Source: a virus
Lineage: Duplodnaviria > Heunggongvirae > Uroviricota > Caudoviricetes
Strand: one strand, 5' to 3'
Length of the DNA: 42,217 nt
Virus record (IMG/VR): IMGVR_UViG_2703718801_000022
Part shown: positions 3,098 to 6,843 of the stretch, piece by piece
How positions within the stretch are numbered: position 1 is the stretch's first letter
Layout of the letters: each line of letters begins with the position of its first letter
Position numbers and translations under genes: made by a program
Notes under the pieces: model-generated
What the model was told of the DNA's origin: nothing
Databases searched by the model: none
What the model saw: the letters and a program-made list of their open reading frames with translations, nothing else

Positions 3098-3280
3098 CGT
3101 TTAATGTGCATAAAGAACCCCCTTAGTTGGTGAGTACATCATACACAATAAACCATATATGGATATGTATTACCTAAGAATACCCCTACCGAAATTACCC
3201 CCTGGGTGATACAATGCTGCCGTCCATAGGAAAATGGTTCTGCATGCAGCTAATACTGGAATATAATATGGAAACTAAAA
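3098..3280. promoter_or_regulatory. Divergent control region (lysis cassette / acyltransferase) with CCATATATGG palindrome and operator-like site
   Basis: CCATATATGG at 3153-3162; TTACC-CCCTG-GGTGA at 3195-3209; same two-motif arrangement as 6715-6767. Confidence 0.4.
3195..3209. promoter_or_regulatory. Operator-like palindrome TTACC-N5-GGTGA
   Basis: Matches the dispersed TTACC-N5-GGTAA family with one half-site variant. Confidence 0.4.
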
Positions 3281-4395
3281 ATGACTGACTCTGTTATCAT
3301 ATACTTGTGGGTTGGATGTTCAATTTTTATATGTGGTCTTTTATTTAGCTCTAATGTTTTTTCTTACATAGACGGGAAAGATCATGATTACTCAAGGGAG
3401 CGGAATCTTGATGGTCTAAGATATATTCTTGCATCCATGGTTGTGTTCCATCACTCAGACTATTTTATTAATTATTTTACAATAAATAAATGGACTACTC
3501 ATTCTGATTTTATTTATTCAATAGGGAAATTTGGCGTAGCGATTTTCTTTTCAATTACAGCTTTTCTTTTCTGGGGAAAGATTCGTAAATCAAAAAATAT
3601 TGACTGGATAAACTTATATAAAGATAGATTTTTTAGAATCGTACCGATGACATATCTTTCATCATTCATTGCTGTATCATATATTATTTTAATGTCAACA
3701 AACCACAACAATATTAGTTTGGATGATTTGTTGAAATGGTTTGACGCAAGTGTATTTGACATAAAACCTAATATAAATGGATTCAATAATTCTGTATTGG
3801 TGTTGTCTGGTGTAACATGGACAATAAAGTGGGAATGGGGATTCTACTTCTCTTTACCAATCATTTATTTTTTACGTTCCAAGCCACTTGAAGCTTCAAT
3901 TGGTATTATGTTTGTATGTATTTTCTACCATCATTTACAGATGCATCATATTGGTATTATTCTGCTTTCGCCTGTGGTATCCTATCTAAGGAGTTATCAT
4001 GCAGAATTTCATTATCAAAAAAAACATCTGACCTCATGCTGTTAGCATCTGTGACTATATTCGTACTGTTAAATCCATCACTTAACAGCACTAGACCGTG
4101 GATAATAGTCACAGTGTTTATGCTTTGCGTGGCTAAAGGCGCAAGCTTGTTTGGTATATTGAATATAAAGGGATTTACTCGTTTGGGGGAGTGCTCTTAC
4201 AGCATTTACCTTTTACAAGGGGTTGTTTTCTATCCTTCATTTGCCTTTATTAAAGATAAATATGATATTAACAACCTAAATATCTCACTCCCAATGATAA
4301 CAATTCTATTCGTAGCACTGTGTGTTTTATCATCACTTACATTTTCTTTTATTGAACGACCACTAATTAAGTACGGAAAAGGAATAAAATTATAA
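3281..4395 (+). pseudogene. Acyltransferase-3 family (O-antigen acetyltransferase-like) gene, frame-broken at an A8 tract
   Basis: AT-rich; multi-TM product with RNLDGLRYILASMVVFHHS and C-terminal LGECSYSIYLLQG motifs; reading frame switches at A8 run 4008-4015 (ORFs 3281-4045 and 3916-4395); one extra A would restore a single ORF. Confidence 0.65.
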
Positions 4396-4400
4396 ACTTT

Positions 4401-4440
4401 AGCGCATTAATCACGAAGGATGTAGTGATTAATGCGCTTT
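4401..4440. terminator. Bidirectional terminator hairpin between convergent acyltransferase and tail fibre genes
   Basis: Inverted repeat AGCGCATTAATCAC...GTGATTAATGCGCT with flanking T/A runs. Confidence 0.6.
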
Positions 4441-4443
4441 CAT

Positions 4444-6648
4444 TTAAAATGAATCACCCCTCCATGAGCAATCAACCATGCCACCATGTATAAATTTCCA
4501 CCTATATTGGTAAGATTGGTTTGGGGTAAGCTTTATACCAACACCAAGATTGGGAACTGTTTCAACAGAATTAATCCATGCTGCTGATTCAGATGTAAAT
4601 CCAAAAACAACTTGCGCCGTATTTGTAAAGAAATCGTCATTACAAGTTGTTATTGCTGATGATGTCTCAGAATTATCTGCTCCATTAAAATAATACAGCT
4701 CAAAGGCTATGTAGCCGTGGTTCTTCATCCTCGTAGCAAACACGCCTCCGGAGTTTCTTGCCGCGATACCACCCTGTTTGAATGTGGTGTTACGCTCACC
4801 TTGTGCGCTCCCAGCATTGATAGTCTGGAATGGTGTGACATCGGCAGAACTGTACTTGTCATTGTACAACTGCATAGCCCCAGCCATTCTATCCGGGTAA
4901 AATGCGTACACATCTATGTCATAAGGTTTTTGTCTAGGTACAGAATTGAATTCTTTCCCTAAAGCGTACAAATCAGTATCGGTGGTCAATGTGTTGTGTG
5001 TGTTTACGATGAGTTGTGTCTCCCAGGAGAACGCCGCATACTCACCATCACCCATGTTAAAAAACTTCTTGGCGAAAGCTATCTGTTTTGCTTTGTTTTT
5101 GAAGTTGTCAGAACCTCCATTTGCGTCAGTTGTAAACAAACCAACGCAAGGTACAATTCTTGATGTGGGACATTTATACTTCAGTTCCGCCCACCCAATA
5201 ACAGCCTGTCGTTTATTCCGGGCATCATCCCAGTCATCGTGATAATACGCGTCTGCAAATATAATATCGTATCCAATACCATCATAACCGCTCGGGTGTG
5301 TATTTGAATCAAACCCAAAAATACCATGTTCAGCTATGCATAATGATTTTTCTGTAAACTCTTTGAATGCAGCAATACGAACCTCTTGAGCAGCTCTGCT
5401 AACTGAATTATTTTGTGGCTCATCAAAAAGATAATACCCTATGACGCAATCTCTATCGTCCAGTTCTGAAGATGGCGTATCTGTCTGTCCGTATATTGGC
5501 CCGCCCAAAATCAAACGCAATCCTATTGCTTCCGCTGCGTTACATGCTTTTTCCATGTCTCCACCATCACGCCATGCCTGACCATAATGAATTAAAGTAT
5601 TAAATCCCGCGGTTTTTATTTGTAACATATCGCAGATATCAAATACCTCATGAACATATACAGCTTTCATTAGTGAATGGTTTACAGGTATTTCACTATC
5701 AAGTTCACATGGAACGTTTGGTAGTCTTGTGTATGTAATCGTTGCTTTTCCGGTAATCCTTGCACCTTGGGGCCAGTCAAATCTTGATAATGTGGTATCA
5801 CCGCTGATATGTGCAACCCCTGTTTTATCTATAGCTGCAAGAACATAAGGTTTAGCGTCCTCTCCACTACTATATATATATCCATATAAAGAAATATCAG
5901 AATTATCATAACCTGATTTATGATTGAGTTCATCCAACGTATCTTGAACAGTATCTCCTGATTTGGTACCAATCATCCCTGCGCCTGCTGGTTTAGCTAA
6001 TTCGATCAATACATCAGAAGCAGAGCCAGATGGAGGAAGTACAACAATGGGGTTACCATTGTTATCGAAAGCAAGCATCTTGTTTTCACGGGAGGCAGCG
6101 TCAGGAAGTATCGGAATCTGCTCCTGAACGCGCAATGTGCACCTGAGGCTAGTACTGAGCTGTGTATCAACATAATTTTTAGTGGCTGCATCTTGAGGTC
6201 TTGAAGGATCACGTAAATTGCGGATGTAATTGTTCAAGGCATCATAATAATTAGCAACAAATGATGGCTTACGCAGAGCCAACCTGAACAAACTGCGTAC
6301 CTGCTGGATCAGCATCGTTAGCTTATCAAACGCATCCTCATGCACCTCAGCAAAGAACTTCCCTTGATTGCGCAGATCAGTTTCCTGCGTAACCGGGAGT
6401 TCTCGTGATATAGAAATCTGATAACCGTTAGCCAACGCCTTCGACAGAATTACATTACCTCCACTGTACCCTCCCGCACCAGTGACTGCGTAATCAGTAT
6501 CAAGAGCCAGCACGGCGATATTTTCATCAAGGTCAACTACCTGTACTACCAGGTCAGATTTCTGGAAAATCCTAAAGGTATAAGGGAACGTAGTTGTAAC
6601 ACCGTTACCTGTGTATTCATTGTGGTCAACTTCGGTTGAGACCGTCAT
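4444..6648 (-). CDS. Tail fibre/tailspike protein with T7 gp17-like N-terminal adaptor domain and probable enzymatic C-terminal domain
   Basis: 734 aa; N-terminus (TTFPYTFRIFQKSDLVVQVVD) resembles podovirus tail-fibre N-domain; GGAGA RBS; own upstream control region. Confidence 0.75.
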   Translation of the reverse strand: MTVSTEVDHNEYTGNGVTTTFPYTFRIFQKSDLVVQVVDLDENIAVLALDTDYAVTGAGGYSGGNVILSKALANGYQISISRELPVTQETDLRNQGKFFAEVHEDAFDKLTMLIQQVRSLFRLALRKPSFVANYYDALNNYIRNLRDPSRPQDAATKNYVDTQLSTSLRCTLRVQEQIPILPDAASRENKMLAFDNNGNPIVVLPPSGSASDVLIELAKPAGAGMIGTKSGDTVQDTLDELNHKSGYDNSDISLYGYIYSSGEDAKPYVLAAIDKTGVAHISGDTTLSRFDWPQGARITGKATITYTRLPNVPCELDSEIPVNHSLMKAVYVHEVFDICDMLQIKTAGFNTLIHYGQAWRDGGDMEKACNAAEAIGLRLILGGPIYGQTDTPSSELDDRDCVIGYYLFDEPQNNSVSRAAQEVRIAAFKEFTEKSLCIAEHGIFGFDSNTHPSGYDGIGYDIIFADAYYHDDWDDARNKRQAVIGWAELKYKCPTSRIVPCVGLFTTDANGGSDNFKNKAKQIAFAKKFFNMGDGEYAAFSWETQLIVNTHNTLTTDTDLYALGKEFNSVPRQKPYDIDVYAFYPDRMAGAMQLYNDKYSSADVTPFQTINAGSAQGERNTTFKQGGIAARNSGGVFATRMKNHGYIAFELYYFNGADNSETSSAITTCNDDFFTNTAQVVFGFTSESAAWINSVETVPNLGVGIKLTPNQSYQYRWKFIHGGMVDCSWRGDSF

Positions 6649-6752
6649 GTTAAATCTCCAGATAGTCGCAGCACCCGTTGCGCCGCATATCCGGTCATTT
6701 TATTACCCTAAAAACCATATATGGATAAAAAGAATGTTAATGCGAATAAATA

Positions 6753-6767
6753 TTACCCTATGGGTGA
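6753..6767. promoter_or_regulatory. Operator-like palindrome TTACC-CTATG-GGTGA
   Basis: Member of dispersed palindrome family; lies about 24 bp after CCATATATGG (6715-6724). Confidence 0.4.
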
Positions 6768-6804
6768 TTTGCAAAACGTGCTGGATAGCAAACAAATTAT
6801 TTGA

Positions 6805-6824
6805 TACTGTATATTTGTACAGTT
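6805..6824. promoter_or_regulatory. LexA (SOS) box
   Basis: TACTGTATATTTGTACAGTT = CTGT-N8-ACAG with AT-rich centre, about 20 bp upstream of ATG 6844. Confidence 0.7.
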
Positions 6825-6843
6825 ATTGCATGGAGAAGATAAG

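Follow-up and report, generated by a model that had tools for sequence, protein, structure and literature searches.

Two matching intergenic regions around the acyltransferase and tail fibre genes of an Escherichia coli Uetakevirus prophage as candidate control regions of late units

Two divergent intergenic regions flank the convergent acyltransferase and tail fibre genes of a complete Uetakevirus (epsilon15/phiV10/SPC32H-like) prophage of Escherichia coli, found in IMG/VR record IMGVR_UViG_2703718801_000022 (the window, i.e. the whole stretch of 42,217 nucleotides (nt) that was analysed). The two regions share a pair of motifs, and we read them, with modest confidence, as two of three copies of a late-unit control region of epsilon15/phiV10/SPC32H-type podoviruses. 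Such a control region would be placed before each late unit that is isolated by opposite-strand accessory genes, namely the head operon, the tail fibre gene and the lysis cassette. In the direction of the late genes, its first part would be a 17-base-pair (bp) inverted repeat, ATTACC-N5-GGTRAT, serving as an operator of the prophage repressor Rep. Its second part, approximately 28-40 bp past the operator, would be a box (nCATATRNGG, hereafter the late box) whose 5' half may act as a weak -35 element 17 nt from a -10 element (TAnAAT for the tail fibre and TAATTT for the head operon), and its third part would be a structured leader. For the tail fibre gene, this would mean a weak promoter of its own close to a Rep operator, probably dependent on a factor. 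The lysis cassette, which has a similar box and TATGAT, would also be reached by upstream transcripts, and these would fold into a hairpin masking the ribosome-binding site of the first lysis gene. The plus-strand genes may depend on other promoters, with an extended -10 in the right half of the operator for the acyltransferase and a LexA-controlled promoter for the small antirepressor Ant.

Two matching regions and a third copy at the head operon

Exact copies of the 10-mer CCATATATGG are confined to 3153-3162 and 6715-6724 within the 42.2 kb, its sole match with one mismatch (16879) being intragenic. The second motif, ATTACCC-N3-GGGTGAT, is exact at 3194-3210 and 6752-6768, and six strand-hits with at most two mismatches were found vs 0.21 expected by chance. 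The original prediction had correctly recognised this motif pair, in one orientation at both places, and had also recognised that both regions are divergent (a holin-like gene on the minus strand and the acyltransferase on the plus strand at the left; the tail fibre on the minus strand and a small open reading frame on the plus strand at the right). The spacing of 24-26 bp that it gave was wrong, since the gap between the first and the second motif is 31 bp in the left region and 27 bp in the right. Alignment of the two regions revealed a similarity better than chance: the 16-mer AAACCATATATGGATA around the first motif is identical in both and is accompanied by the second motif in equal order and orientation. 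By our estimate, a common 16-mer would arise between two stretches of approximately 190 nt with a probability of about 1e-5.

The same two-part arrangement was observed in both homologous regions of phiV10, epsilon15, Tyrion and SPC32H and is therefore conserved and not a product of chance. For a wider comparison, 80 IMG/VR loci encoding a near-identical Ant were collected, 66 of which contain both a lysis gene and a tail fibre gene and represent, with the window, 38 cassette types. Chance resemblance of two AT-rich intergenic regions is hardly credible as an explanation. It could account for the 10-mer CCATATATGG taken alone, which with one mismatch allowed has 3 matches vs 1.33 expected, a number reached in 14 of 100 shuffles, but not for an exact 16-mer followed by the second motif in equal order and orientation, nor for the retention of both parts in five phage genomes and 66 related loci.

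A third copy was identified upstream of the gp3-like head operon, where the minus strand reads ATTACCTTAAAGGTAAT-N40-TCATATGTGG-TTAAGTTGGTAA-TAATTT (26743-26661), with a box and -10 region that epsilon15, phiV10, Tyrion and SPC32H share without change. The late box precedes all three late units of the prophage that are kept apart by opposite-strand accessory genes. Its consensus is nCATATRNGG and, across variants, nC(A)T(A)(W)(R)nGG followed by TT; its 3' half is more conserved than its 5' half, and the box is therefore only loosely palindromic. Among the related loci, the box of the right region is always at offset 67 and the operator at offset 105, and a box-like element of the left region is nearly always 52-57 nt from the lysis gene.

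Several other assignments of the box were considered and rejected. A potential fourth late box (33621-33631) was discarded because operators 33601/33663 enclose an early-type promoter there and the box falls within its spacer, directly next to the -10 element. The late box cannot itself be a -10 element, as no hexamer inside it has A in position 2 together with T in position 6 in all variants, and neither a sigma-54 consensus nor that of another alternative sigma factor fits it when judged by eye.

Predicted Rep operators

The second motif belongs to a dispersed family. TTACC-N5-GGTRA has 36 strand-hits vs 3.4 expected, corresponding to approximately 15 sites in the window. Three of these (35946, 35977 and 35994) are clustered between the divergent rep and cro-like genes, and the pairs 36706/36768 and 33601/33663, each exactly 62 bp apart from centre to centre, bracket strong early-type promoters. 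The full operator form is ATTACC-N5-GGTAAT, from which the two focal sites differ by one base (GGTGAT). The presumed ligand, Rep, is a full-length homologue of the SPC32H repressor PDB 5D50_A (E 4e-42). In the epsilon15 RefSeq record (NC_004775.2), seven sites are annotated as 'protein_bind: repressor, lysogeny', all of them ATTACC-N5-GGTAAT; one of these (19895-19911), between gp19 and the tail fibre gene, is the homologue of 6752-6768. A further perfect match in the lysis/conversion region of epsilon15 (24704) is without annotation in that record. The operator maps of phiV10, Tyrion and SPC32H are the same as that of the window, and SPC32H, which was used to look for covariation between Rep specificity and the late-unit operators, has an operator sequence identical to that of the window. 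With high confidence, the ATTACC-N5-GGTRAT sites are predicted to be Rep operators.

Some additional features of these sites were noted. The 62-bp spacing of the paired operators is equal in the window, phiV10, epsilon15, Tyrion and SPC32H and would suit a repressor tetramer gripping two sites on one face of the DNA; an example of the enclosed early-type promoters is TTGACA-17-CATAAT (36741-36769). Isolated operator half-sites (GGTAAT on the late strand) accompany the late boxes at 3168-3175, 6701-6708 and 26664-26671. In the tail fibre and head units the half-site overlaps with the -10 region (GGTAATAAAAT and GGTAATAATTT); in the lysis unit it precedes the box by 6 nt, an arrangement shared with many related loci. 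At the small terminase gene (29860-29960, minus strand), an intrinsic terminator (GCCGCCAACTATGGCGGC plus a T-run) is followed by two adjacent operators that reach the start codon; no late box was found in this leader, and the same is true of epsilon15, phiV10 and Tyrion.

Candidate promoters of the tail fibre and lysis units

Twelve nt past the box, TAGAAT, TAAAAT or TATAAT is present in 42 of 42 distinct tail fibre leaders (including those of epsilon15, Tyrion and phiV10), with variation at position 3 only, so that the A at position 2 and the T at position 6 of a sigma-70 -10 element are conserved throughout. The 5' half of the box, T(C/A/T)CATA, is a weak -35 element 17 nt from this hexamer; in the window it reads TCCATA (minus strand, 6725-6720, base 6725 included). 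The tail fibre gene is cut off from the structural operon by approximately 5 kb of mostly opposite-strand genes and by a strong minus-strand terminator (9251-9234). Judging from these sequence features, the tail fibre gene very probably has its own promoter, and it is reasonably likely that the tail fibre and head units both start at weak promoters associated with the box.

The lysis leader has a different character. Sequence conservation of the lysis unit begins at the box, and TATGAT, TATAAT or CATAAT is kept 9 nt past it in about 30 of the 38 leader types. A hairpin with a 3' arm terminating in the Shine-Dalgarno sequence of the holin-like gene is supported by covariation among 31 diverse leaders: 96% of cells are paired vs 11-63% in slid controls, and the number of compensatory cells (10) was attained in none of 500 shuffles. 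The hairpin contains many G.U pairs and therefore fits only late-sense RNA, and the epsilon15 record contains an 'RNaseIII' site at the homologous position. Since the covarying hairpin spans the -10 candidate, RNA that starts at or before the box must cross the leader, and read-through from the tail fibre transcript therefore occurs. Thus, the original view of separate promoters for the tail fibre and lysis genes very probably applies to the tail fibre, whereas for lysis the hairpin indicates read-through. A local lysis promoter in addition to read-through is possible but somewhat doubtful. The two may coexist, and transcripts begun after TATGAT would be without the masking arm.

Within the same leader (3088-3120, minus strand), a conserved Shine-Dalgarno-like AAGGGGG is followed by a 7-codon mini-ORF (open reading frame; ATG CAC ATT AAA CGG TGG TCA TAA), the stop codon of which shares bases with the start ATG of the holin-like gene (TAATG). 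Alternatively, GTG-3097, ATG-3088 and ATG-3079 may form a multiple-start motif of the holin/antiholin type.

The acyltransferase gene and its putative promoter

The acyltransferase matches PF01757 (Acyl_transf_3) with 65.2 bits in its first half and 21 bits, under the curated cut-off, in its second half. In five E. coli genomes the cassette is present at 99.7-99.9% identity over 3.7 kb with an intact acyltransferase of 372 amino acids. In the window, a 4-bp deletion at ~3908 (one TGTT of TGTTTGTT; 3900-3915) splits the gene, leaving either a pseudogene disrupted by a frameshift or a variant arisen by slippage, and the lysogen therefore probably lacks an active receptor-modifying partner. The pairing of a receptor-binding protein with a receptor-modifying enzyme had been proposed to represent a seroconversion and self-exclusion pair. 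The same arrangement is indeed annotated in phiV10, whose oac gene carries the note 'acetylates the host O-antigen; functions in superinfection immunity', but to judge from the frameshift the pair is probably non-functional here.

The promoter of this gene appears to be built into the left operator. In 10 of 10 cassette types with a divergent conversion gene, the operator half-site GGTGA is followed by TAnnnT, which creates an extended -10 (TGnTAnnnT) toward the conversion gene. This element reads TGATACAAT in the window (3207-3215), with equivalents in epsilon15 (TGGTAAAAT) and in Tyrion and SPC32H (TGATAAAAT), and the fusion explains why GGGTGAT is seen instead of the consensus GGGTAAT. Among the 38 types, 14 have a left operator, namely all 10 with a divergent conversion gene vs 4 of the 28 without one (Fisher p = 2e-6). 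On account of this association and the fused -10, the left operator is assigned to the promoter of the conversion gene, and we infer that an extended -10 built into the operator is the acyltransferase promoter. At the other end of the gene, the hairpin at 4401-4438 has a T-run on the plus strand only and should therefore be a terminator for the acyltransferase that is weak in the late-gene direction.

Position of cassette exchange

Breakpoints were mapped as alignment depth along the window of 38 comparison sequences (37 related cassette types plus reference phages). On the left side, homology ends at ~3165-3215. The depth is 35-38 up to 3150 (35 at 3150), falls to 14 at 3175 and 0 by 3225, remains 0 until ~6000, and returns stepwise at ~6000, ~6175 and ~6325, being 38 onward through the right region and ant. 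The right breakpoints (~6000, 6170 and 6320) all fall within the tail fibre gene at a distance of 400-700 bp from the right module, after approximately 110, 160 or 216 codons of its conserved N-terminal domain. The variable unit thus comprises the receptor-binding distal portion of the tail fibre and, in types that have one, the conversion gene; its left edge lies just past the lysis box, or past the operator where the operator is retained, and its right edge follows the conserved virion-binding N-terminal domain.

In addition, part of the distal tail fibre (4528-5796) shares 86.5% nucleotide identity with the tail protein/'lyase' gene found in PE3-1 and JSS1, T7-like coliphages with E. coli O153 as host, which is an exchange of a receptor-binding domain between unrelated podovirus groups.

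Alternative explanations

It had been suggested that the duplicated modules mark, and perhaps promote, the exchange of a cassette, each acting bidirectionally on its flanking genes. The occurrence of 38 cassette types at one position among the 66 related loci and the window fits this suggestion, as does the break of homology directly after the left box. The right breaks, however, are intragenic, and 6715-6768 is conserved in all 38 comparison sequences, so that comparison with related prophages did reveal alternative cassettes, but between boundaries of which only the left one is near a module. Moreover, a third copy is present at the head operon, where no such cassette exists, and the left operator is missing from 24 of the 38 cassette types. 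The plus-strand promoters of the two regions, one an operator-fused extended -10 and the other LexA-boxed, have nothing in common, and the shared parts serve the minus-strand late genes, contrary to the idea of one control module driving both sides. The modules are therefore very likely not cassette boundaries, and the suggestion as a whole is now very improbable.

A stronger competitor, although still an unlikely one, is that one or a few long late transcripts cross the cassettes and that the box and hairpins are RNA signals (for RNase III/RNase E processing, translational masking or antitermination) and not promoters. Several of the observations in its favour also count against the proposed control region: 8 of the 38 lysis leader types have no -10, the TATGAT candidate lies inside the covarying RNA stem and is crossed by RNA made upstream, and cassettes of the L024 type have the stop codon of the tail fibre gene directly beside the box, 64 nt away from where the lysis gene starts, with no conserved room for a promoter. 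The late-sense hairpin, the RNase III site annotated there in epsilon15, the asymmetry of the box and the lack of a T-run in the late direction in the hairpin after the tail fibre gene are likewise what read-through would predict. On the other hand, read-through does not explain the textbook TAnAAT of every tail fibre leader, the strong terminator and mostly antisense genes upstream of the tail fibre, or the TTAACC-17-TATAAT of the phiV10 lysis leader. An Rfam search of 2600-7600 (E <= 1) gave no family match in 3098-3280 or 6649-6843, its matches being at 7171-7368 with weak chance ones elsewhere. Single-sequence folds suggest a Shine-Dalgarno-masking hairpin in the tail fibre leader too, but alignment recovered a 4-bp invariant stem only.

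The reading as late-unit control regions has further difficulties of its own. The tail fibre -35 hexamer TCCATA matches in 3 of 6 positions, and no -35 with at least 4 of 6 was found at 16-18 nt from the -10. A consensus sigma-70 scan of 2900-7500 gave no minus-strand match in either intergenic region, and the late promoters, if real, are therefore below consensus thresholds; the weak -35 and the lack of a consensus match point to dependence on an activator or another factor. The distance from box to -10 also differs between units (9 nt for lysis vs 12 nt for the tail fibre and head), and the left operator is absent from most cassette types, as noted above. Expression of a lysogenic-conversion gene in lysogens is hard to square with an operator that covers its -10. 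The late-unit operators are centred approximately 70 bp (tail fibre and lysis) or 82 bp (head) before the presumed starts, and one placed at about 70 bp would leave RNA polymerase unobstructed.

These operator positions allow for another function. By hand counts, the distance from operator centre to -10 centre is 60.5 bp for the tail fibre in all genomes, 60.5-61.5 bp for lysis (though the box is shifted by 3 nt), 72.5 bp for the head operon (12 more) and 48.5 bp in one variant, L016 (12 less). The near-constant distance hints at a phased, activator-like or looping role, with few independent cases to go by. It is conceivable, if improbable, that the Rep-family operator is used in two opposite ways, repressing over early and conversion promoters and activating upstream of the three late units. 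Operators at about -58, -70 and -82 resemble class I activator positions, and a protein bound there in lytic growth would, jointly with the late box, activate the late genes; the result would be a compact P1-like dispersed-operator regulon in a podovirus, without Q-type antitermination. Candidates for this protein would be the cro-like protein or a late factor such as the gp49-like regulator. The latter matches PHROG 536 'transcriptional regulator' only, with no match in Pfam, NCBIfam or PDB searches, and no late activator was identified in the searches made. Inspection by eye suggests a ribbon-helix-helix at its N-terminus and a Cys-rich C-terminus. A perfect 12-bp palindrome, GTGACATGTCAC (30167-30180), overlaps its stop codon and is conserved in epsilon15 and Tyrion, with one substitution in phiV10.

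Phage identity and neighbouring features

Assignment of the window to Uetakevirus is based on gene order and on nucleotide and protein similarity to epsilon15, phiV10, TL-2011b, Tyrion and SPC32H in the lysis, tail fibre, ant, structural and immunity regions. Its genes are ordered as in phiV10 and epsilon15, and the lysis genes, tail fibre N-terminus and small open reading frame have 86-96% nucleotide identity to TL-2011b, phiV10, HEMP4 and others. The window thus adds an unremarkable representative, with another cassette, to a phage group already known. The coordinates of all features are listed in Table 1. At the left end of the prophage (1-1071) are a lipoprotein gene and a DUF5384-type gene, both of which TL-2011b has beside its lysis genes, and an accessory gene inside the prophage (8402-8974) is YafO-toxin-like (PF13957).

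Table 1. Features of the two regions, their third copy and the surrounding genes in the window
Feature	Position	Strand	Remarks
Rz	1291-1773	-	
Endolysin	1770-2399	-	
Holin	2389-2697	-	
Holin-like membrane protein, first lysis gene	2684-3088	-	ATG at 3088
Lysis-leader RNA hairpin	3095-3157	-	5' arm: 3' half of box through TATGAT; 3' arm ends in Shine-Dalgarno GGTGG of holin-like gene
-10-like hexamer TATGAT, candidate lysis promoter -10	3138-3143	-	9 nt past left box
Late box, left copy, CCATATATGG	3153-3162	-	65 nt upstream of holin-like ATG (3088); upstream edge of conserved sequence
Predicted Rep-type operator ATTACCCCCTGGGTGAT	3194-3210	.	Family TTACC-N5-GGTRA
Putative extended -10 of acyltransferase (TGaTACAAT)	3207-3215	+	Fused to operator right half; GGTGATAnnnT in relatives
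Acyltransferase (Acyl_transf_3, O-antigen acyltransferase-type)	3281-4395	+	Split into 3281-4045 and 3916-4395
Hairpin between convergent acyltransferase and tail fibre genes	4401-4438	.	14-bp stem; -23 kcal/mol
Tail fibre/tailspike	4444-6648	-	Conserved epsilon15-type N-terminal domain (~6000/6170/6320-6648); variable distal receptor-binding part (4444-~6000)
Putative tail fibre -10 hexamer TAAAAT	6697-6702	-	TA[G/A/T]AAT in relatives
Late box, right copy	6715-6724	-	67 nt upstream of tail fibre ATG (6648)
Predicted Rep-type operator ATTACCCTATGGGTGAT	6752-6768	.	Homologous to epsilon15 'protein_bind: repressor' 19895-19911
Putative ant promoter TTGATA-17-TATTGC	6801-6829	+	LexA box in spacer
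Predicted LexA box CTGTATATTTGTACAG (CTGT-N8-ACAG)	6807-6822	.	In ant promoter spacer; read from sequence
Small antirepressor Ant, 85 amino acids	6844-7101	+	5D50_E homologue; phrog_450
Bro-N protein (larger antirepressor-type)	7402-8127	+	
P22_AR_N protein (larger antirepressor-type)	9301-10239		
Third module copy, upstream of gp3-like head operon	26661-26743	-	Operator ATTACCTTAAAGGTAAT 26729-26743; box TCATATGTGG 26678-26687; TAATTT 26661-26666
gp49-like regulator	30176-30514		
cro-like gene	35679-35909	-	
Prophage repressor Rep (helix-turn-helix), presumed operator ligand	36064-36648	+	5D50_A homologue
PerC-like protein, candidate activator	39360-39659		

The small open reading frame of the right region had been proposed to encode an antirepressor, and it matches the antirepressor PDB 5D50_E (E 1.4e-46) over nearly its full length, with most residues identical. 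The prophage therefore has homologues of both 5D50 proteins, as well as a predicted LexA box overlapping the ant promoter, consistent with a switch of the SPC32H type. The arrangement of the LexA-boxed promoter is presumably the same as that of SPC32H ant. The Rep/Ant/LexA lysis-lysogeny switch of this Salmonella phage was reportedly described by Kim and Ryu in J Virol in 2013.

Downstream of ant, the interval 7104-7400 before the Bro-N gene contains Rfam matches to isrK (7184-7260, 67 bits), C4 antisense RNA (7285-7368, 66 bits) and the a1/b1 target (7171-7223), and is a P1/P7-immI-like antisense control unit before a second antirepressor-type gene. At its beginning, the promoter-like TTGCAA-17-TATATT (7105-7133) abuts a perfect Rep operator (7133-7147). 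Small Ant, the Bro-N fusion and the P22_AR_N fusion have a related Ant-type C-terminal segment (...DGxxVxGxxAELTxxxxYxxxxxxxxRDxQTHxxY...), and the two fusions have a near-identical C-terminus of approximately 80 amino acids in common.

Relation to known systems and implications

Much of this arrangement is already annotated or solved in the genus: the epsilon15, phiV10 and SPC32H records and PDB 5D50 cover the dispersed operators, the LexA-controlled small antirepressor and the tail fibre/acyltransferase pair. The epsilon15 record has the same 17-bp motif and the same map of sites (terS, head operon, ant/tail fibre region, early-left promoter and replication region), but it lacks annotation of the 24704 and rep-cro sites as well as promoter features, and the window differs in having GGTGAT halves at two late-unit sites. 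SPC32H has in common with the window the Rep and Ant homologues, the LexA box in the spacer of the ant promoter and the operator motif at the same genome positions; the window prophage also has the Bro-N and P22_AR_N genes and the C4-type antisense RNA. Likewise, the phiV10 Oac/tail fibre pair and the epsilon15 conversion genes occupy the same position in convergent orientation, belong to the Acyl_transf_3 family and have an operator-fused promoter upstream, whereas the acyltransferase and distal tail fibre sequences of phiV10 differ from those of the window, whose acyltransferase is frameshifted.

Two more distant systems offer parallels. In phage P1, the C1 repressor has many operators scattered over the genome at separate units, and Lpa-dependent late promoters consist of a -10 and a short, partly palindromic element that replaces a good -35. 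The window resembles P1 in having one immunity repressor with dispersed operators and late promoters that would combine a -10 with a short element; it differs in that there is no homology to C1 or Lpa, its operators are symmetric and the position of the box relative to the -10 varies between units. We know of no late activator identified in Uetakeviruses. P22-like tailspikes have a conserved N-terminal virion-binding domain and an exchangeable receptor-binding part; the breakpoints in the window similarly follow a conserved N-terminal domain, which belongs to the epsilon15 and not the P22 type.

The late box, the operator-fused conversion promoter and the covarying lysis-leader hairpin were not found in the epsilon15, phiV10, Tyrion and SPC32H records or in the literature searched, and the Uetakevirus literature searched contained no mapping of operators or late promoters. 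They are refinements and not a new kind of system, and they overturn nothing. These results correct an attractive but wrong reading, in which the repeats mark a swappable seroconversion cassette, and replace it with a regulatory map that gives the expected repressor sites, the late genes with probable promoters of their own and the true place where tail fibre specificity is exchanged. Such a map bears on the timing of lysis and on the expression of O-antigen-modifying genes in temperate podoviruses.

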